A stretch of DNA of 64,000 nt from Nitrosopumilus sp. (GCA_965205675.1 OZ242186.1:192001-256000), one strand, 5' to 3'; counted from the first letter of the stretch, positions 5,304-26,369 are shown. Notes: generated from the letters alone by a model not told the origin. Made by a program: numbers and translations.

Positions 5304-6397
5304 TGCCCCAGATCATAAGTCTTTTCAATTTACTGTTCTTGCAAAATAATACATATTCAAATTAAATTTGTGGGTTCTAAAATATTCCATAACTGTATGC
5401 CTCATTTCATGAATAGATTCATAAAATTCTGATTCAACATTAACATGTTTGCTTTGTCTCCAAATCTCTTCAATCATACTCAAATGTGGAGAACCTCTTG
5501 GAAGATATGCCAGTTTGACATCTTTGTTTTTGTGCAGATATTTTTTTACATCATTAGCTTTGTGTTGTGGTGCCCTATCGACGATAACAAATATTTTTCC
5601 AAATTTTCTACGAGCTGCTTCCAAATAGTCTATAAATGCAATTGAATTAAATTTTTCATACGATCTAAAAAAACTTTGATTATCATCAGTCATCATTTCC
5701 ATAAACCAAAAATCTTTGATGTGATCCTCTCCAACGTACAATTAATCTTTGGTGTGCATCTGTCCAGTATTTTTTACCAAGACGTACATCGTCTACAAAT
5801 ACAGACTCGTCTTGGATAAATACTGTAAAACCTTTCTTTTTTGCCTTTTCTATGCGTGAAATGATGCGGTTTTTCCACTTGCGGCATGCATCCTTGGATG
5901 CGGCACGTACATGTAGTTTTTGTGGAACCTTTGGTTTTAGATTCCATTTATGCATCAAACGACGCACGTGAGTGATATGATATGTAATGCGTGTTCTGTA
6001 AAATATGAATTGTATCAGTTTTTTTGGAGTCATGTCGTCTGAAATTTTCTTAAATGTACGCTCTATTTTTTGTAATTTTTTGTGTGAGATTAATGGCGGA
6101 CGGCCAGAACGAGGGAGATCCTCCAGGCCTTCTAGTCCGTATTTTTCAAATGAATCAAGCCAATTCCTTACAGAATTATATGTACAAAACATTTGGTTGG
6201 CAGTTTCAGCAATTGTAGATTTATTGATTTTAATCTTACACATTGCATGTAATCTTGTTTTTTTGTGAATATTTTTTTCTTTTTTGTAGGCCTGGAGTAA
6301 CTCGTCATTTGTGATGTCCATGAAATTATTTCTAACTACTGATCAAAAAGTATTACTATTTGTTTTGAAAAATTGCAAAGAATGATGCTCCAAGGTA
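5304..6397 (-). mobile_element. IS630-family element type A, copy 1 (frameshifted transposase, ORFs 5686-6321 and 5325-5741)
   Basis: PRSGRPP, QDES, VDRAPQH and IEEIW motifs; TA flanks; near-identical to 29530-30619. Confidence 0.93.
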
Positions 6398-6437
6398 TAT
6401 GCTTATATTGAGATTTTTTTTGTCAGAATTTAATAAC

Positions 6438-7457
6438 ATGAAAAATGATAAAAAAGTACAGACCGTATTATTTGCCGGAATAATTGGTATGATGATTCTG
6501 CCATTTAGTACGATGAATGTAGCAGATGCAGTAGAACTACCCGATGATAAATTTTCGGTAAAAGAAAAATTAAAGGAGAAAATGTTTGAATTATATGAAA
6601 AGGACAAAAAAGAGAAAGATACTGGCACAAAACATACGTCTGAAGAATATGGAATACCATACAACCTCGTTTTTGAAAAGAATGGAAAATTGATTGTAGG
6701 CATTGATGCCAAAAAGACATTGGAATTTGACGAAGAGTATTCCAAAAACGATGTAAAGTCTGATCTTGACACATCAATGGATATGGATATTAAATATTAC
6801 GTATTTGAGAGGGAATCTAATGTACGAGCTGGCGATGCTTTGTCACATAATCTACAGTCTTCAACTATTACCGTAGTAAAAAATAACAAAATCATAACCA
6901 CCGGTCATGCTTTTAATCTGAATGACATTGTAAGTGCGGGATTGGTTGGCGGAGTAGGTTGTCAAGAAGTTAGAATTACACATGACAATAACTACAGTGG
7001 GGCATATGCCGATGCATCTTATGGATTTGATACATACAATTCTGATTGCGACAATAACTATGTCAATGACTCACTACACTACAATGGTAATAATTATTCT
7101 GTTACCTATGGAACTGCAAGTGACATCACACTAAACAAATTCATCAGAATTGCAGGTATTATAACTACAAGTAGTGGACATATTCTAGACACTGATGTTA
7201 CTGCCAAAACTCCTGAAGGTCTCTTAAATGATCAGGTCATAGGAACTTATTCAAGTACAAATGGTGATAGTGGAGCCCCAATTTTCTCAATTACCGGATC
7301 CTCCACAGTCAAACTCTTAGGTCAACATGTGGGCAGAGCTTGTGAAGTGGATCTCAACAGTGAAACAAACTACGCTTACTGGTGCAATTCCGACATGGAA
7401 GGAGGATTGAAATTCTTCTCTCCATGGGATCAAGTAAAATCACATTTGGGAATTTAA
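6438..7457 (+). CDS. Secreted trypsin-like (S1/PA clan) serine protease with propeptide
   Basis: Signal peptide MKNDKKVQTVLFAGII...ADA; catalytic-triad-like motifs TTGHAF, ADASY, NGDSGAP; start reassigned to 6438 by comparison with paralogous leaders. Confidence 0.8.
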   Translation: MKNDKKVQTVLFAGIIGMMILPFSTMNVADAVELPDDKFSVKEKLKEKMFELYEKDKKEKDTGTKHTSEEYGIPYNLVFEKNGKLIVGIDAKKTLEFDEEYSKNDVKSDLDTSMDMDIKYYVFERESNVRAGDALSHNLQSSTITVVKNNKIITTGHAFNLNDIVSAGLVGGVGCQEVRITHDNNYSGAYADASYGFDTYNSDCDNNYVNDSLHYNGNNYSVTYGTASDITLNKFIRIAGIITTSSGHILDTDVTAKTPEGLLNDQVIGTYSSTNGDSGAPIFSITGSSTVKLLGQHVGRACEVDLNSETNYAYWCNSDMEGGLKFFSPWDQVKSHLGI

Positions 7458-7472
7458 TTTTTTTTATTTACA

Positions 7473-8054
7473 ATGAACAAAAATATTTTAATGATATTTA
7501 CAATTCTAATTTTCACATCTGCACATACTACATTGGCTTTTGGTGAACATATAGAAGGTATCTTGACTGCAGAAGAATTTAGTGAGGCCATAAATAAATT
7601 CGCCAGAGATGGAGATTATGTACAGCAATACGTTGACTTTTTCATCACTGATCATGAGTGGTATCGTGTTTATGGTTTGGCAAATGGTGATCCTGAAAAA
7701 GCAATTGAGATTTTCAATCATTCTGATTACCCATTCAATGTTTTTGATCTTAATGGACAATCAATCACATGGATTGATGATAAACGTCTTATTGACCCAG
7801 AATTTGATGTATTATTTGTACATGAGATTTTAGATTACAAAAGTGATCAACAAGATTTGGGAATCTTGCTATTAATTGATGAGAGATATGCAAATCAGGA
7901 AAACTATGATCGATATGAGGAACTTCTTAGGCCCATTATCAGCATGCACCTCCCTATGACATTTCAAGTGTATCAACCAGTAACTAATGCATCTGATTAT
8001 GAAGATTTTTATTTCACATGCCAAAGAATTTCAAGTGTATCAACCAGTAACTAA
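7473..8054 (+). CDS. Secreted hypothetical protein, partner of the serine protease (C-terminus probably disrupted)
   Basis: Signal peptide ending TLAFG; starts 15 bp after protease stop; 30-bp duplication near 3' end. Confidence 0.65.
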   Translation: MNKNILMIFTILIFTSAHTTLAFGEHIEGILTAEEFSEAINKFARDGDYVQQYVDFFITDHEWYRVYGLANGDPEKAIEIFNHSDYPFNVFDLNGQSITWIDDKRLIDPEFDVLFVHEILDYKSDQQDLGILLLIDERYANQENYDRYEELLRPIISMHLPMTFQVYQPVTNASDYEDFYFTCQRISSVSTSN

Positions 8055-8057
8055 TGC
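7961..8057 (+). repeat. Perfect 30-bp direct repeat, two copies, 37 bp apart
   Basis: atttcaagtgtatcaaccagtaactaatgc at 7961-7990 and 8028-8057. Confidence 0.9.
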
Positions 8058-8111
8058 CAGTTAGTTGGGAAAACATTGATACTCATCTTGAATTAGATGA
8101 TCAACTGAATC

Positions 8112-8163
8112 CAGTAGATGGGAAAGTAACTCAATTTAGATCAAAAACTATCAATTATTCAAT
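8112..8163 (+). mobile_element. Left-end remnant of ISH3-like element
   Basis: Matches the first 52 bp of 23529-24846; truncated by IS3. Confidence 0.85.
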
Positions 8164-9405
8164 TGGAGTGGACTCCTGTTTTTAGTACCACTTTTTGCAT
8201 AATCTTACATACAGTCTGATTCATTTATGTTTTCATCTCCCATAACTCCATGAATTCATCAGGAGTAAGGTATCCTAACGCTGAATGAATCCTGGAACCA
8301 TTGTAATCGATTCGTGCTTTCTCTAGAGCAACTTCGGCTTCCTGATAGTTTGCAAACTCGTACCTCCACAAGTATTCCTTCTTGAGTGTCTTGTGGAATG
8401 ATTCGACATGTCCGTTTTGTTCTGGCGTGTGGTGCCAGATGAATTCGTGTCTTATTCCAAGTAGAACAACTGCTTTTCTGAAATCTCGGCTGTTGTATTG
8501 CGAACCGTTGTCAGTTCTGAGAATCAGTTTTGTGCAATCAGGCTTTGCAGTAGCTACTGCATTAATGATGCTGTTAATTGCAGTGCTCTTTGGAGCTGCC
8601 ACATCAAATGAATGCCAAATCCATTTCCTGCTAAATGCATCAATCACGTTAAAGCAGTAGCACCATCTGTCAACTCCACACCAGACATATGTGATGTCTG
8701 TCTGCCACAACTGGTTTGGTGCATCAGGCTTGAATAATGTTCTGGCAGATTTGATGATGTCATTTTTGGTCTTTTTAGGCTCAATCCAGCCCAATTTGTG
8801 AAATATTCTTCTGATTTGTTTTCTGTTTACAGGCTTGTTCAGTTCCCTTGAGACTTGGGATGCCATGCGTCTGGTTCCATAAGTTGGCCTTTGTTTTCCA
8901 ATCTTTTGAACTACATCAGTTACTGCAGGATCTGTCTGAATCCTTCTTGGTGACTTTGAGTAATACCATTTGCATTTTGAGACTCCAATTAATAACAATG
9001 ACTTGTTCAAACTGATGTGTTTGTTCAGTTGATTCACTGCAGTCATCTTTTCTGGTTCTCCAACGTTTTTTTTAAAATGTCATTGGCAATTGTGATCTCG
9101 CCGATTAGTTTTTTGAGGGAATCATTTTCCTTTTGCAGATTCTTGCAGACATCTCCGTTTGGTGTGCCATTTAATGATGCCTTGCCACCTTCTACAAATC
9201 GTTCCCTCCATTGGTAGAATGTCTGTGGATGAATATTGTACTTTCTGCACAACTCTGCAGTTGCAATGTTTGTGTTTAGTGACTCTAAAACCACTCTTGA
9301 CTTTTCTGCTGATGTGAATTTGCTCTTTACCATGAGGGTAAGCCTCCCAAGTTATCTGAAAAGTGTATGTATGCTACCGGTCCTACTCTAGAGGGGACCA
9401 GACCA
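8164..9405 (-). mobile_element. IS3-family element, copy 1 (orfA 9043-9333, orfB 8225-9046)
   Basis: TG...CA ends, HTH OrfA, DDE OrfB (WQTDITY, TDNGSQY, ESFHKTLK); 1242 bp like copy 2; flanks CAAT/GTCT show no TSD. Confidence 0.95.
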
Positions 9406-9681
9406 GTCTAGTTCATCATTCTTTTTCAAATTAAGAAGCCTTGCAAACTCTATTGGAATGGTAACCTTTGTGGAATAGTATCTCTGATTCTGATATGTCT
9501 TTGTGAGCTTTTGCCTTACTTTAACAGGTGTCGAGTCTTTTGGTTGCTTTGTGTGCAGTCGTATGGTCCTAGTCTTTTTAGATGCTGTAGCATGTAAAAT
9601 CATGCCTTCTTGCAATGGTATTGTCTCTGCTGTTTTGTAGGGGATTTATGACATTGTATGAATCATGTCGCTGTATTCCAT
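9406..9681 (-). pseudogene. AbrB/MazE-like DNA-binding protein remnant truncated by IS3
   Basis: YYSTKVTIPIEFARLLNLKKNDELD motif; in-frame stop near 5' end. Confidence 0.55.
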
Positions 9682-9920
9682 AGTTTTCCTTTTTTATCTT
9701 TGAGAATACCTGAAGTTTTGGCATTATCGTATCATGGGAAAAATTGAATTTAAAGGAAGAAAAAAGCAGACTATATTTTTGATGATTCCAAATAACCGGT
9801 TTACTTGATTCTCTTATCTGCCTGTCTGTATCTAAAATGATTCGCTCTTTTGGCAGTCTTTGATTTGTGAACCAGACCGTACATTTGACACAATTATCAT
9901 CTTTTATTTCAGGTCATATG

Positions 9921-10026
9921 GTCAACTTACAAGACAGAAACAAGAGTTTGTTGTGATATCTCAGAAATTATTTGAAATTAAATTCAATGAAAGAAGAGAT
10001 TTTGTCTGCAATTACGCAAGAGGTCT
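9921..10026 (+). mobile_element. IS5-like right-end fragment
   Basis: Similar to reverse complement of 3989-4090, ends caattacgcaagaggtct. Confidence 0.75.
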
Positions 10027-10548
10027 ATTGGTGACAATCTCAACATGTACTTTTCCCTTTCTTTTCAATATACCAAATACAATTGTCTTGTTCTTGGCAC
10101 CTCTGCCACGATTTCCCTTTCTTTTTCCTCCAAAATAGGCCTCATCAGCCTCAATCTGACCCTTTAGAACATCATCTGTTTTGGATTGTTCTTCAAGTAT
10201 TGAGAATCTCATGATGTCAAAAGAATGCAATGCGGTAGGATAACTAACACCAACTTCTTTTGCTGCACGTCTTGCACTAATCCCAAGATCAAATAGTTTG
10301 ATTAGAACCAATCATTTTGGATAATCAATATTGATGATACCAAACTGTGTATCTGAGAATGGTTTGTAGTTTGTCTTACATTTACTGCATCTTAAATTCC
10401 CTCTGCTCATCAGATAATATTTTGGAGAATCACACTTGGGACAACATACAGAACTTGTACTGTTGAATCTTTTACACAGAAATTTTAATGATGTTGATTT
10501 ATCTGAAACTATTTTGGATAACTCAATGATATTGATAGTTTTTTCCAA
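10027..10548 (-). pseudogene. IS1595-family transposase remnant
   Basis: Zn ribbon CPKC...CSKC, EADEAYFGGKRKGNRGRGA; internal stop at 10312; truncated by IS5-like end. Confidence 0.85.
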
Positions 10549-10550
10549 TA

Positions 10551-20126: not shown

Positions 20127-20301
20127 GTTATTGTCACATCGCAAAAATTATTCCAATATAAAGATAACTTAGACATGGGCATAATCAATTACAAAAAACA
20201 AAACCAAAAAATAATTATTATCAAATTGATTTTGTTTTAATCAACATAATCTAATGTATATTCAATATGACTTTACAATTCCATGATATTATTCCATCAT
20301 A

Positions 20302-21447
20302 TAGTTAAGGCATTAAATATTTGAACACTTTAACAACTCGAACCGCTCCATTGTCTAGTCTCTTCTGCATGTGTTTTCTCATTTCAGTTCCATTTGCAAA
20401 GAATGTATTGGCATTACCATTTTTCTCTTCTCTCCACTGTATCTCAATTGGATTGAGTTCTGGAGTGTATGCAGGAAAATATCTAATTATTACTTTATTT
20501 TTTGGTGCTTTGAGAAATTCTTTTACTCGGACACTTTTGTGGTATGATGCATTATCTGCAAACAGTAACAATTTCTTACCAAATTGTTTTTGCAGTGATT
20601 CTAAAAAATCAAGAAATGAGTCTGTGTTTGATTTATCATAGAACCTGCAAAAAAATACACCGTTATTGCCCAATGCACCAAATGATTGAAATTTTTCTCG
20701 AGTGTAATTAATTGGTGTGGTAATGTTATTGCCTGCAAGATACCATCCGCGCTTTATGTTGGGTGCTACTTTATTTGTTGACTCGTCCAGACATAGTGTG
20801 GTGTATCCCAATTTGGAATATTTTTTGATACTCCTTTTTGCGTTTTTTTAAAACGGGTTTGTTCCTCTTTTGAGGCTGATTTGTGATGAGTCTGTCTTGG
20901 TTTTTTAGATGAGAATCCGATTCTGTGCAGCAATTCACGCATTCCTCTTGCAGAGTATAGCGTGTTGTATTTTTTATTCACATGTGTAATTACCATTCTT
21001 GTACTCCACATGAATTGATTGAATCCAAACTTTTCTGGACCTGAAATTAGATCACCTCTTAATGACACTAGTTGTTTTTTATTTAAGAAACATCTAGAGC
21101 CAGAATATTTCTTGCGGCGTGATGCAGTTATTCCCTCTTTATCCATTCGATTTAGCCAGTAGGACAGAGTTGATGGTATGACATCCAAACTGGCACATAT
21201 CACAGAATACGGAATATCTTGTTTTCTTAGTATTGCAGCCTTTAATCTTATCTTCGCTTTTGCATTTTTTTCATTCTTGCATGTTTTTCTTAAAAAATTA
21301 ATGCTTGTTCCTTTCATGAAATGGCTTCCTGAAGATACCATTAATGCTTTAGTTTGTTTTGACATGATTCTGTAAGTATAAACTATGATCTAGATCTTTT
21401 GGGTTAAAATAGTTGATAATTCGTTCAAAATTTATATGCCTAAACTA
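20302..21447 (-). mobile_element. IS630-family element type B (ORFs 20766-21365 and 20305-20811, probable -1 frameshift)
   Basis: IRs tagttaaggcat / atgcctaaacta with TA flanks; LDES, DNASYH and PELNPIE motifs; TTTAAAAAAA slippery run at the ORF overlap. Confidence 0.92.
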
Positions 21448-21508
21448 TAGAAAGTGGGATAAAGTAATATGGATTATATGTTAGGATTTTACCGTATTAA
21501 ATAATAAC

Positions 21509-23528
21509 ATGAAAAATTTAACAAAAAAGACACAAACAATTTTGTTTGCAGGAATAATTACTGCAATGATTCCTGCCCTTTAGTACGATGAATGTCGTAG
21601 ATGCTCAGAATGTCCCAGGAGAGGATTCTACAGATGAGATTGGACCAGTAGGAGTTGTTGATGAATTAACAGTACTAGATTCTGTATTAGATGACTATTT
21701 AGAGGAATTAGAAGTTGAACAAGATGTAGAATATACAGAATATTTGGATACTGCAGTTACTAGATTAGAAATTGCAAAAGCAATGATGCAGGTTTCAAAA
21801 AATTCTACTGATATTGCAATGAAATATCAAAACCACACTGTTCTAGAACTGCTTGTCCTTCTTGATCAAACATATGGACCTGAGGATTATCCTGCAACTA
21901 ACAGTGATAACAATTCAACACATACAAACATAGACATGCTAACTGAAAATAATCATGTATCTGGACTTTATTTTGTTAGTCATAGTACGCCAGAAGTTGA
22001 TGTGTTGAATTACAACAACCATCACCAAAAACAATATGATTGTATGGACAGAATAACCCTTACAGGTAAATCTTTATTGGTCTGGTCCCCTCTAGAGTAG
22101 GACCGGTAGCATACATACACTTTTCAGATAACTTGGGAGGCTTACCCTCATGGTAAAGAGCAAATTCACATCAGCAGAAAAGTCAAGAGTGGTTTTAGAG
22201 TCACTAAACACAAACATTGCAACTGCAGAGTTGTGCAGAAAGTACAATATTCATCCACAGACATTCTACCAATGGAGGGAACGATTTGTAGAAGGTGGCA
22301 AGGCATCATTAAATGGCACACCAAACGGAGATGTCTGCAAGAATCTGCAAAAGGAAAATGATTCCCTCAAAAAACTAATCGGCGAGATCACAATTGCCAA
22401 TGACATTTTAAAAAAAACGTTGGAGAACCAGAAAAGATGACTGCAGTGAATCAACTGAACAAACACATCAGTTTGAACAAGTCATTGTTATTAATTGGAG
22501 TCTCAAAATGCAAATGGTATTACTCAAAGTCACCAAGAAGGATTCAGACAGATCCTGCAGTAACTGATGTAGTTCAAAAGATTGGAAAACAAAGGCCAAC
22601 TTATGGAACCAGACGCATGGCATCCCAAGTCTCAAGGGAACTGAACAAGCCTGTAAACAGAAAACAAATCAGAAGAATATTTCACAAATTGGGCTGGATT
22701 GAGCCTAAAAAGACCAAAAATGACATCATCAAATCTGCCAGAACATTATTCAAGCCTGATGCACCAAACCAGTTGTGGCAGACAGACATCACCTATGTCT
22801 GGTGTGGAGTTGACAGATGGTGCTACTGCTTTAACGTGATTGATGCATTTAGCAGGAAATGGATTTGGCATTCATTTGATGTGGCAGCTCCAAAGAGCAC
22901 TGCAATTAACAGCATCATTAATGCAGTAGCTACTGCAAAGCCTGATTGCACAAAACTGATTCTCAGAACTGACAACGGTTCGCAATACAACAGCCGAGAT
23001 TTCAGAAAAGCAGTTGTTCTACTTGGAATAAGACACGAATTCATCTGGCACCACACGCCAGAACAAAACGGACATGTCGAATCATTCCACAAGACACTCA
23101 AGAAGGAATACTTGTGGAGGTACGAGTTTGCAAACTATCAGGAAGCCGAAGTTGCTCTAGAGAAAGCACGAATCGATTACAATGGTTCCAGGATTCATTC
23201 AGCGTTAGGATACCTTACTCCTGATGAATTCATGGAGTTATGGGAGATGAAAACATAAATGAATCAGACTGTATGTAAGATTATGCAAAAAGTGGTACTA
23301 AAAACAGGGGTCCACTCCATTATCTGTCTTAACATCATACTCAGACAACACTGCAACGATTACTGGTACATTTGATTATCCAGAAGATATGGATAAAAAT
23401 ATCAGAGAACGAAGAAGTAATGAATGCTTGAGTTTTGAACACGATGAAACAGTAAAACGACATGATGTTATGATATCCCTTGATCCTAGAGAAATAATAC
23501 GAGCTCAAGTGTGTACTTTGACGGAATC
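21509..23528 (+). pseudogene. Third shared-leader secreted protein, disrupted by a +1 frameshift, IS3 and ISH3
   Basis: ATG 21509 MKNLTKKTQTILFAGIITAMI; extra C near 21572; frame continues across IS3 (GKSL|SVLTSYSDN...) up to ISH3 at 23529. Confidence 0.75.
22078..23319 (+). mobile_element. IS3-family element, copy 2 (orfA 22150-22440, orfB 22437-23258)
   Basis: Proteins identical to copy 1; 4-bp TSD TTAT at 22074-22077 and 23320-23323. Confidence 0.96.
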
Positions 23529-24846
23529 CAGTAGATGGGAAAGTAACTCAATTTAGATCAAAAACTATCAATTATTCAATCAATCTATTCAGATAGAAAA
23601 AGCTTGATGGAAGTATGTCACTCCATCAAATATGCATTGTACTTCATTTGATACCATGACACACCAAGGCGTGATACCATCTAAAGCATTTGAGATTATC
23701 ACTAAAATAATGTACAATATCTTATTGTTTCCATGCTCTAGTAAAAATAACTCACGGTTCCACAATGCTGATGCACACAATTCTATCATGTCATTGTGTT
23801 TGGGAAATTCATATTCTGAATCTGGATTAAAGAGACTGGCAATGGAATCATATAATGCTTCTCCAACTGGTTCATGGTTGAGAAAAATCATATCAAAAAT
23901 ATCACAAAAAACAATGCAAATTCAATTACATCAGTCACTAGATAGTACAGTATCAAAATTACGAGAACTGGGAGTATTGGAACAACCAGTTACTGTAGCA
24001 ATTGACAAACATCTAATCCCAAGATATGACAAATTGCCAAACCATTCTTTAATAAAATCAAAATCTAAAAACAGTACTACTCATTTTGAGAGTTACTGCA
24101 CCATGCAGTGCGTTGAAAAAAGAATCAGGGCTCAACTAGGTTGTTATCCTTTGTATGACAACAAATCAAATGCCGATTTTGTGCGTAAATTACTCTCTGA
24201 TGGCATCAATAATGGAATCAAGATTAAACTATTGCTAGTGGATAGGGAGTTTTTCACAGCTGGAACAATTTCAGAAATAACACAAAAGAATCTGAAATTT
24301 CTAATGCCTGCAAAAAGAATTCTCGAGTCAAAGATGCCATTTTACAATACGTTAATGGAGATAGAAAGTCAATCTCGCCATACACAATAAAATCATCATC
24401 AGGACATGTAGAATCATTTAATCTAGTTATTCTGCCAAACAAAAATGCAAGAAAAAAATCAGATATTATTGATCAGTATGTTGTGTTTGCAACAAACGTT
24501 TCACCAAAAGAAATATCATATAACATACAAAACATTCCAACTGACTACAAGAAACGTTGGGGGATTGAAACAGGCTATGCATGTGTGGGAAGGTTCAGAC
24601 CAAAAACCACCAGTTCAAACCAATCCATAAGATTGTTGTATTTCTACTATTCATTGATTTTGTACAATGCATGGATAATTGCTAATTTGATTATCTCAGA
24701 AGAAACTAATGTACAAAATCACAAACCAATAATATCAATTGAAATTCTCAAATATTTCTTTGTAAAGATAATTATTCATTACTTTAGAAATAACAAAAAT
24801 AATTATTTTCTAGAATGTGTAACTTGAGTTACTTTCCCATCTACTG
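23529..24846 (+). mobile_element. ISH3-like (IS4 superfamily) element, transposase frameshifted near 24320
   Basis: Perfect 23-bp TIR cagtagatgggaaagtaactcaa; AIDKH, LVDREF, YKKRWGIETGY motifs. Confidence 0.88.
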
Positions 24847-24886
24847 AAAATAAACAAAATTATAAGTATTTCCACATGGATTGTAG

Positions 24887-24971
24887 TGCGGGAGGTGGGA
24901 TTTGAACCCACGAAATCCTAAGATATAGGGTCCTAAGCCCTACGCCTTTGACCAGGCTGGGCGACTCCCGC
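24887..24971 (-). tRNA. tRNA-Leu(TAG)
   Basis: GCGGGAG acceptor, TAGGG-CTTAGGA-CCCTA anticodon arm, long variable arm, GTTCAAATCC T-loop. Confidence 0.95.
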
Positions 24972-25019
24972 AATGAATTTGCCATTAAACACAAATTTAT
25001 CTATTATTGCGTAGTTATT

Positions 25020-26369
25020 ATGGCGAAATTTTTTGGAACAAACGGAATTCGTGGAATCTTTGATGATGATTTTACATTAGAATTCATTCATGATATGACA
25101 CTTGCAATTGGAACATATTTTGGAAAAAGATCTGTATTGATTGGATATGATGGACGAGAATCAAGTCCTGCTATATGTAAGGTAGTTAGTTCTGCTCTGA
25201 ATTCAATAGGAATTGATTGCAATGTTGCAGGTATTGTTCCAACTCCTTGTCTTGAATATGCAGTAAAGAGTTTAGGATATTCTAGTGGATTTATGATTAC
25301 TGCATCCCATAATCCTCCACAATACAATGGAATCAAACCTGTTGCTAGTGATGGAGTTGAAATTTCACGTGAAGATGAACTAGTCATTGAAGATATCTAC
25401 TTGCAAAAAAAATGGCTAGCCAAACCTACAAAATGGGGAATTACAGGAACTGAAAATAGAGCCATTGCAACATATCTTAAAGGAATCATTTCTCATGTTG
25501 ATTCTAGACTAATAGAATCAAAACATTTCAAAGTCGTTTTAGATTTAGGAAACGGCGCACAAACAGTATCTGCACCTAATTTTTGTGAATTACTTGGCTG
25601 TGAAACATTTCTTGTCAATCAAAAATTAGATGGTGAATTCCCAGGACGTGGATCTGAGCCAACTCCACAAAATCTTTCTGTACTTTCACAAACAGTACGA
25701 GAAAATAATGCAGATGTAGGAATTGCGTTTGACGGTGATGGTGATCGAAGTATGTTTTGTGATAATAATGGAGATATCTTAACTGGAGACAGATCTGCAC
25801 TTGTACTTTCACAACATATCTTAAAGAAAAATCCAAACTCTTTGATAGTAACTTGTTTGAATTCTGATTCTAACATTGAAGTTTTAGCTGATAAATTCAA
25901 TTCTAAAGTTATTCGAACCAAAGTAGGAAGTGTTGAAGTTTCAAGAAAGATGGTTTCAACTGATGCACTAATTGGGTTTGAAGAAAATGGGGGTTTTATG
26001 TATGGAAAACACAATCAAGTTCGAGACGGATGTATGGCTTTGGCACTAATGCTTGATTTACTTGCAGTATCTGAAAAATCCTTGGTCGAAGAAATTGTTA
26101 ATTTACCTCCTTCTTTTACCGCCAAAGACAAAGTTTTGTGTGCTACAGAAAAAGTTCCAAAATTGATTTCCTCCCTCAAAGAAGAGTTCCCCAATTCTGA
26201 TACTTCTGATGGCATCAAGATTATAATTGATCTTGAAAATTGGGTGATGATTAGACCTAGTGGAACTGAACCAGTTGTTAGAGTATATGCAGAAGCTGAA
26301 AGTCAGGAGAAATTAGATATTTTGATGTCTGAATTTCTTGTAAAAATTAACTCTATAATTTCCAGATAA
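25020..26369 (+). CDS. glmM: Phosphoglucosamine mutase / phosphomannomutase family
   Basis: FFGTNGIRG, ITASHNP, FDGDGDR, IRPSGTEP; start set at ATG 25020. Confidence 0.88.
   Translation: MAKFFGTNGIRGIFDDDFTLEFIHDMTLAIGTYFGKRSVLIGYDGRESSPAICKVVSSALNSIGIDCNVAGIVPTPCLEYAVKSLGYSSGFMITASHNPPQYNGIKPVASDGVEISREDELVIEDIYLQKKWLAKPTKWGITGTENRAIATYLKGIISHVDSRLIESKHFKVVLDLGNGAQTVSAPNFCELLGCETFLVNQKLDGEFPGRGSEPTPQNLSVLSQTVRENNADVGIAFDGDGDRSMFCDNNGDILTGDRSALVLSQHILKKNPNSLIVTCLNSDSNIEVLADKFNSKVIRTKVGSVEVSRKMVSTDALIGFEENGGFMYGKHNQVRDGCMALALMLDLLAVSEKSLVEEIVNLPPSFTAKDKVLCATEKVPKLISSLKEEFPNSDTSDGIKIIIDLENWVMIRPSGTEPVVRVYAEAESQEKLDILMSEFLVKINSIISR

Follow-up and report, generated by a model that had tools for sequence, protein, structure and literature searches.

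A recombining promoter and signal-peptide head shared by unrelated exported proteins in a Nitrosopumilus genome

The window analysed here, 64,000 nucleotides (nt) of a Nitrosopumilus sp. genome (GCA_965205675.1 OZ242186.1:192001-256000), contains an island ridden with insertion sequences (ISs) that runs from about 4 to 24.9 kb and is flanked by core genes and a tRNA-Leu gene. Between the IS elements lie genes for exported proteins: gene A with a small downstream partner gene, a group at 12005-18396, gene B with a partner of its own, and gene C (Table 1). This report concerns the 5' head that A, B and C have in common, which comprises a TATA-like box, a start context and a type-1 signal peptide (SP1), and the unrelated proteins, or payloads, that it precedes.

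Table 1. Features of the island and related loci; positions are those of the window unless marked as genome positions (aa, amino acids; ORF, open reading frame; SP2, second signal peptide)
Feature	Position	Strand	Remarks
TTATAT box, gene A	6403..6408	+	29 nt before ATG
AATAAC start context and 31-codon SP1, gene A (MKNDKKVQTVLFAGIIGMMILPFSTMNVADA)	6432..6530	+	
Gene A, 339 aa	6438..7457	+	SP1, Lys/Glu-rich pro-like stretch, putative trypsin-like (S1) domain (TTGHAF, GDSGAP motifs)
Partner of A, 193 aa	7473..8054	+	N-terminal hydrophobic signal or anchor
Partner of B, 105 aa polytopic membrane protein	18881..19198	-	conserved C-terminal helix (SNLxFWxPxA), hypervariable N-terminal two-thirds
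Replaced cassette, compared with B' locus (genome 1039614-1040824)	18960..19630		33-72% nt identity in 60-nt windows
Gene B, 304 aa	19212..20126	-	SP1, acidic motif, helical domain (~aa 50-135), beta-sandwich C-terminal domain
Post-signal motif QNGPGEDSTDEVGPVGVVDELT	19968..20033	-	common to B, C, D and SP2 genes
SP1, gene B, 31 codons	20034..20126	-	
TTATAT box, gene B	20156..20161	-	29 nt before ATG
TTATAT box, gene C	21474..21479	+	29 nt before ATG
Gene C, 5' part	21509..22077	+	mosaic SP1, +1 frameshift, motif, orphan payload
IS3-family insertion interrupting gene C	22078..23319		
Gene C, continuation	23320..23528	+	100% identical to C' over 209 nt, then another IS cuts the frame
D	genome 594530	+	SP1 locus
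B'	genome 1040824	-	second copy of B
C'	genome 1041059	+	second copy of C
E, full-length A paralogue	genome 1411504	-	
F	genome 1584382	+	S1-type protease with SP1
SP2 genes	genome 1592041-1596837, 1619663-1618875, 994032-993421, 1533128-1532394, 1053564-1054508		
IS630-like	5325-6321		island element
IS3 ORF, copy 1	8225-9333	-	opposite orientation to copy 2
IS1595-like and IS110	10012-11671		island elements
WING-49-domain exported protein, 361 aa	12005-13090	+	NCBIfam NF058652, E 2e-15
HYR/fn3/Big_9 surface protein, 1143 aa	13087-16518		start overlapped 4 nt by WING-49 gene
M10 (matrixin)-like metalloprotease	16976-18396	-	HELLH; Pfam E 1e-4, below cut-off
IS630-like	20302..21446		inserted in B-C divergent intergenic region
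IS3 ORF, copy 2	22150-23258	+	within 22078-23319 insertion
IS4-like	23632-24827		island element
tRNA-Leu	24886..24971	-	right edge of IS-rich island

The three genes begin alike with aataacATGAAAAAT, and the distance between the TTATAT box and the ATG is exactly the same in each, so that the common start reported in the initial annotation is borne out. Such a fixed distance would imply leaderless or near-leaderless mRNAs. The signal peptides, described there as near-identical, are 74-80% identical over the 93 nt that encode them, synonymous sites included (A-B 80%, A-C 74%, B-C 80%). The AATAAC preceding the ATG is found before just 6 of 1009 long-ORF ATG starts genome-wide and is therefore not the organism's general start context, and the 15-mer AATAACATGAAAAAT occurs five times in the genome, every time in the leader family.

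The consensus of a profile built from 27 leaders is M..K.xKTILFASLIAAMILPFSGMxFAxA; on inspection, the aligned sequences have a K-rich start, an LFA(S/G)LIxAMILPFS core and an A-[DEV]-A end. This layout, with a positive n-region, an h-region of about 15 residues and an A-x-A c-region, fits Sec and signal peptidase I, and the proteins are predicted to be exported by Sec and cleaved after A-x-A at a signal-peptidase-I-type site. Class III (type IV pilin-like) signal peptides carry a prepilin-peptidase site, [KR]-[GA], immediately ahead of their hydrophobic stretch. The leader has no such site, T, I or V after K preceding the core (KTILFA) and A-x-A following it, and it lacks the Cys after the core that would mark a lipoprotein. 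An arrangement of a single expression site with silent cassettes is ruled out, each gene having its own TATA box and ATG.

Searching with the leader profile revealed eight SP1 loci in the genome (A, B, B', C, C', D, E and F), and two further genes, G and H, couple another signal peptide to the motif that follows SP1 in B and C. Of 150 further genomes from its family, the Nitrosopumilaceae, 16 also have the leader; it spans 9 of 27 genera including the window's own, often with several copies per genome that lie within a few kb of each other. When genomes were sampled across the phylum, the leader matched 6 of the 43 from the family, and 4 of 257 genomes outside the family gave weak partial hits only. 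Among 1.84 billion protein representatives the 27-leader profile recovered 459 clusters at E<=1e-3 and 168 at E<=1e-10, and the named relatives among the homologues are Nitrosopumilus. A word-based homologue search with residues 1-55 of B returned only five close relatives, and an exhaustive profile search was needed. The observation is confirmed and is larger than first noted: a family-restricted head stands on many unrelated exported proteins.

That the likeness is an artefact, whether a chance resemblance of hydrophobic signal peptides or an assembly collapse of repeats, is hardly credible. Signal peptides do resemble one another in general, and nothing further speaks for it. Chance is refuted by the nucleotide identity at synonymous as well as other sites and by the presence of the leader in 16 independent genomes and 459 protein clusters; the assembly is a single closed contig that is 99.88% complete, and contigs from three of four public sequencing runs cover most or all of the locus.

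A more serious alternative, which we nonetheless consider unlikely, is that the payloads are ordinary secreted enzymes whose signal peptide is inherited and under constraint and that the downstream genes encode co-transcribed membrane proteins, anchors or maturation helpers, with no role in conflict. The leaders would then be alike through a few ancestors and through a preference of Sec and signal peptidase for one hydrophobic core. The leader is, however, restricted to just eight loci in this genome, where neighbouring genes have quite different signal peptides, and it is missing from 134 of the 150 family genomes. The secretion machinery thus does not require it, and it is not a generic signal peptide of core proteins.

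The mature parts of A, B and C gave no BLAST match outside the leader and the motif, as expected from the earlier claim that the payloads are unrelated. A wider set was assembled from the best 149 representatives, 91 of which had at least 120 residues after the leader (the 58 shorter ones were dropped), together with 35 sequences from fetched loci. The mature parts in this set fall into 37 BLAST components, that is, at least 37 unrelated families, and homologues of the leader do not always carry homologous C-termini. Pfam models recognised Trypsin or Trypsin_2 among the 91, four overlapping Reprolysin models on two proteins and Peptidase_A4 on one, the rest having stray matches or none.

The initial annotation called A a serine protease, and it is a candidate member of the S1 family. 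Both A and its paralogue E have GDSGAP and TTGHAF motifs and a language-model feature score of 0.96 to trypsin-bearing clusters, but A had no Pfam hit at E<=0.1 and no meaningful PDB sequence hit. F has HGDSGG and TAGHC motifs and likewise no Pfam hit, and a relative of F (P0124) passes the Pfam Trypsin model with 32.2 bits against a cut-off of 20.6. That several payloads are plain proteases favours the explanation by ordinary secreted enzymes. For A, C, D, G and H, nothing exceeded the Pfam or NCBIfam cut-offs. The ATG of F is one base out of frame and lies just 5' of an A7 run (genome 1584374-1584400; about 1493-1520 of locus L007), and one extra A in that run would give MYNKIKKIQIILFA..., in line with the leader consensus; the offset is either a homopolymer error, a pseudogene mutation or a phase switch.

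It had also been noted that B and C share the stretch QN.PGEDSTDE.GPVG and then diverge. The stretch is indeed shared, but it is a module in its own right that also follows a second, different signal peptide (SP2, MNKIKYAIPLLALILLIP...FAQ) on five other genes. SP2 heads G, H and three others, and all five continue with an acidic PGE(E)D..GPV motif; one of them encodes a 1599-aa S8 subtilase (Pfam Peptidase_S8, E 7e-38). The heads of B, C and D are thus chimeric, since in these genes SP1 is joined to a motif that belongs to the SP2 genes. The motif has ten matches in this genome (G000) and four in a single congener, G269; the 299 other genomes searched had none, and the motif is nearly species-specific.

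How the heads came to be shared is recorded in part in their DNA. The leader of C was said to be a mosaic of those of B and A, and the site pattern agrees: a 37-nt stretch matches B and a 17-nt stretch matches A, and at 33 sites that distinguish A from B, the sequence of C follows B ten times, A five times and then B again (runs test, P=0.002). The leader of D is likewise mosaic (runs test, P=0.0006). The leader of A is only 55% identical to the leader of its paralogue E, although the mature parts of A and E are 68% identical, and it is closer to those of B (80%) and D (77%), which precede unrelated bodies. Upstream regions also pair across families (B-H 74%, E-F 69%), and the n-region carried here by C is found on a B-type gene (P0005) in another strain. 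Among the 27 leaders, identity is 61.1% within genomes (24 pairs) versus 51.6% between genomes (327 pairs; permutation P=0.0006). Recombination is needed to account for the DNA-level mosaics and for the conflict between the A/E and A/B/D leader relationships, and inheritance of a constrained signal peptide by ordinary enzymes does not provide it. Such exchange mostly homogenises or patches heads. Many leader-payload pairings are old: B-type payloads bear the leader in g1, g14 and g2, and D-type payloads do so in g1, g16, g2 and g14, so that one payload family keeps it across genera, and this persistence favours ordinary enzymes.

Gene C itself is a pseudogene, with a frameshift, an IS3 insertion and a truncation. 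The frameshift is due to one extra C near 21573 that produces a TAG at codon 25 (21581), and it is also present in the second copy, C'. A split C-type gene with the leader is present in another genus (L018).

Both intact genes of the window were reported to be followed within 13-15 bp by a different small gene, and the gaps between stop and partner start are 15 bp for A (7473) and 13 bp for B (19198). Across the genome, an ORF of 75-193 aa with an N-terminal hydrophobic segment begins 6-49 bp after A, B, B', C', E, F and H, and six of the seven SP1 genes with a readable 3' end have such a partner. In other genomes, 15 of 26 loci have a small membrane-anchored partner under a fixed criterion (within about 50 bp), as do 14 of 22 when only payloads of at least 200 aa are counted. 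By the same criterion, the control frequencies in this genome are 4.0% for ORFs of at least 200 aa (44/1093) and 8.9% for those with an N-terminal hydrophobic segment (18/202).

The downstream genes are not independent of the payload. In three of three cases, the A-type partner stands behind an A-type gene or its remnant (A; E, whose partner is truncated; and G269). In G269, it is preceded by just the last 18 codons of an A-type gene, so no intact A-type pair is seen there. All ten close B-type genes examined are followed by a polytopic membrane protein of 94-138 aa with the conserved last helix SNLxFWxPxA, and more distant B-type genes are followed by other small membrane partners. Payload and partner identities are correlated among B-type pairs (Mantel r=0.54, P=0.003), ranging from 38 to 90% for the payload domain and from 14 to 59% for the partner, which is by far the more variable of the two. 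Searches of Pfam and NCBIfam with the partners of A and B returned nothing above cut-offs, and a protein-cluster feature search gave no usable match for the partner of A. A complex prediction for the C-terminal domain of B with its partner scored 0.10 against a mark of 0.32.

In the model of B, a helical domain and a beta-sandwich follow a disordered head (pLDDT 78; 89.6 for the C-terminal domain alone). The invariant residues of B (DEDHP, H266 and YVSNTWNHM), along with Cys155 and Cys198, may point to a metal or active site. Residues 192-301 match positions 65-182 of the 202-residue NCBIfam model Lsa23 (NF047489; E 1.2e-7), and since the score is 31.3 bits against a cut-off of 270, the homology is at the level of the domain only. 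Both proteins are exported and share this C-terminal domain; their N-terminal domains differ, and the adhesin role of the Leptospira protein is an annotation. B had no Pfam hit, NPP1 included, and no PDB sequence hit. In the VIA fold comparison of the C-terminal domain, the two top rows are NLP cytolysins aligned over the whole domain at Z 4.5 and 4.0, below the tool's trust level; the better, whose Z of 4.5 is also below the tool's noise level, has a root-mean-square deviation of 3.8 over 107 aligned residues. Foldseek found no match at E<=0.001 for either the full model or the C-terminal domain alone (E about 1), and rows of up to Z 7.4 for the helical N-domain are generic helical matches. 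An NLP-like fold is a lead rather than a result.

Several other B-type sequences were seen. A third B-type gene in this genome (1432974-1433429; L061) encodes 250 aa with a C-terminal domain that is 61% identical; the leader is missing at its called start, and a different membrane protein, of 88 aa, follows. In another genome (L047/L059, G299:C1:1821130-1825801), an insert of about 1.2 kb with another leader-bearing ORF interrupts a B-type gene close to the conserved 3' end, and the B 3' end and membrane partner continue past the insert. Isolated fragments of B-type 3' ends occur in G299, G052, G080 and G291, with no clear orphan array seen.

Modular exchange is also seen at the B locus itself. 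Window positions 16586-23528 are duplicated at genome 1037319-1041832, and the flanks of B and B' are 99.7-100% identical whereas the whole B gene is only 88.8% identical. The stretch of low identity takes in residues ~165-275 of B and, in the partner, the first ~75; at the 3' end of B lies a conserved island, ~19215-19305 (92-93%), and the last helix of the partner is identical. B and B' thus combine the same N-terminal part (first ~170 aa, ~98% identical) with alternative C-terminal domains within one species, which is one of the features that characterise polymorphic toxin systems. Both types recur in another genome, where P0005 is 91% identical to B and P0003 equals B' in the variable part, and they look like maintained alleles rather than mutational noise. 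Contigs from the public runs branch at the same boundaries (19301 and 19608), some into the B' sequence and others into sequence that matches neither copy; as these contigs are of metagenome type, they are supporting evidence only. Replacement of the cassette is left unexplained if B is an ordinary secreted enzyme.

A different explanation is that of a surface-variation system rather than a weapon, in which the payload is held at the cell by its membrane partner, the interface between B and its partner is diversified to escape viruses or grazers for which it serves as a receptor, and the head provides co-regulated display. The location of the hypervariability, in the membrane-proximal N-terminal part of the partner and in one domain of B, would suit it, as would the annotation of Lsa23, the only named relative of B, as a surface adhesin and the HYR/fn3 surface proteins of the same flexible island. 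We regard it as quite improbable: the proteases A, E and F are less suited to display, the payloads show no anchoring motif, and C-termini of the B and B' types that are 91-100% identical in another genome do not indicate continuous diversification.

The reading we prefer is that of an accessory set of Sec-secreted proteins defined by a recombining 5' head, mostly arranged as payload-partner cassettes in IS-rich islands and having an effector-type role, and we hold it to be fairly probable. The set is delimited by its 5' end (TATA box, AATAAC-ATG, signal peptide) rather than by the mature protein and is confined to one archaeal family. Through homologous recombination or gene conversion, genes that are not homologous have had the head copied and patched between them, and in this species it has been joined to a second module, spliced in behind it, which is the acidic PGE(E)D..GPVG stretch of the other signal-peptide family. 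The bodies may be unrelated extracellular effectors, including S1 proteases (A, E and F), reprolysin-like metalloproteases, the Lsa23-like B and many without a family. Most form cassettes of two genes, the second encoding a small membrane-anchored partner that is particular to the payload family, and they reside in IS-rich flexible islands, here beside tRNA-Leu. An IS lies within 3 kb of 12 of the 14 family loci. Among B-locus alleles, the C-terminal domain of the payload and the N-terminal helices of the partner were replaced jointly. The shared head would supply common expression and export.

What such a set may do is a separate question. The most likely function, which we put forward tentatively, is that of a secreted effector with a cognate partner for self-protection or docking, directed against competitors or viruses. 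More doubtful is the broader proposal that the Nitrosopumilaceae carry a Sec-dependent polymorphic effector-immunity arsenal, with dozens of unrelated secreted effectors (proteases and a possible membrane-active beta-sandwich protein), cognate small membrane immunity proteins and one recombining head into which new cassettes could be plugged. The initial annotation had proposed a constant export and promoter module with variable effector and partner, shuffled by recombination. Its support lies in the unrelated payloads, the recombination, the partners that track payloads and the B/B' cassette; the toxin part fared less well, with no toxin domain recognised and the pairings often old.

Several observations weigh against an effector-immunity role. 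The constant part looks like an ordinary Sec signal peptide and is not a trafficking domain, much of the leader sharing is old rather than recent shuffling, and the similarity of leaders within a genome could reflect adaptation to the secretion machinery of the lineage. D has no partner, and 11 of the 26 loci in other genomes lack a qualifying one. A single partner type (transmembrane segment plus YVCxTG...YNNGTHxIDMDxCxW) stands behind F-type proteases and also behind a D-type payload, and in G269 the payload is 83% identical to B while its partner is 26% identical to that of B; co-variation of payload and partner is loose and is confounded by relatedness. The C-terminal domain of B has no VIA match at Z>=5, and Pfam, NCBIfam and PDB sequence searches with payloads and partners recognised no domain of the toxin, inhibitor or immunity type. 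The loci without a partner and the want of such domains are also points in favour of ordinary secreted enzymes.

The analogy with toxin-immunity systems fits the anatomy. Closest are the Sec-dependent polymorphic toxin/immunity cassettes, for example Neisseria MafB-MafI (PMC4287609) and the systems of Zhang et al. 2012, as cited in PMC6393860. Passages of PMC6393860 mention archaeal polymorphic toxin loci marked by Colicin D and PD-DExK nuclease domains, and neither the leader nor the cassettes described here. Cassettes of this kind resemble the present ones in having a signal peptide and constant head whose C-terminal parts vary, a small gene that follows at once and tends to vary along with the C-terminus, and a multi-copy, patchy distribution in islands with allele replacement between conserved junctions. 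The present genes differ in that toxicity would follow only by analogy, no toxin or immunity domain being recognised. Their constant part spans just ~31-55 residues and includes no conserved trafficking domain, they differ over the whole mature protein rather than in C-terminal tips alone, and the host is an archaeon with an S-layer only.

Other systems share particular features with the head. The YSIRK-G/S and KxYKxGKxW sequences are lineage-specific, stereotyped signal peptides of Gram-positive cocci, and like them the SP1 sequence marks a subset of unrelated exported proteins in one lineage. Unlike them, it is archaeal and is conserved together with its promoter, start context and DNA sequence, with mosaics, and no dedicated pathway or localisation is known for it. 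In the Mycoplasma vlp/vsp/vsa lipoproteins and the conotoxin superfamilies, a conserved 5' end (promoter and signal peptide) precedes variable bodies. The present family resembles these in its conserved head, divergent mature parts and recombination among members, but it has no single expression site, site-specific invertase or lipobox, and its bodies are unrelated folds rather than repeats or one toxin scaffold. Effectors of the bacteriocin or colicin type pair with a small polytopic membrane immunity protein, which recalls the secreted B-type proteins and the 94-138 aa multi-helix membrane proteins that follow them. The weak NLP/actinoporin-like fold signal of the B C-terminal domain would suit a membrane-active effector; unlike in that class, the fold match is below significance and no pore-forming or lytic domain is identified.

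Ammonia-oxidising archaea are among the most abundant microbes of the ocean and soils, and to our knowledge almost nothing is known about their interactions with competitors, viruses and surfaces. Literature searches, whose coverage left out supplements and subscription journals, found no earlier description of the leader or the cassettes in these archaea, in agreement with the initial annotation. The family-restricted head provides a simple sequence handle on an accessory secretome of hundreds of mostly uncharacterised secreted proteins, and promoter-plus-signal-peptide units are here seen to evolve in modular fashion, driven by recombination, in an archaeon. Testable pairs bearing on chemical conflict among these archaea are at hand (B with its partner; A, E and F with theirs). 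If the arsenal reading is true, a system for interference competition would for the first time have been described in ammonia-oxidising archaea.

The surroundings of the family are rich in mobile elements. At least 136 copies or fragments of the window's six IS families are present in the 2.0-Mb genome, a very high load for an ammonia oxidiser, and one IS630-like type accounts for 46 of them. The IS630-like element between B and C is missing from the B'-C' copy. The two IS3 copies are listed as identical, with orfB products that differ by one residue in the overlapping reading-frame listing, and they bracket about 12.8 kb that includes most of the exported-protein genes; because the copies are opposed, the segment may be prone to inversion or behave like a composite transposon. 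Within it, the M10-like metalloprotease gene overlaps a gene for a 232-aa exported protein, and the two recur, 99.7% identical, at genome 1037709-1039129 within the segmental duplication that includes B and C. A tRNA-Leu site is a usual position of integration hotspots, and the one at the edge of this island overlaps the start called for the core gene beyond it (24948-26369).

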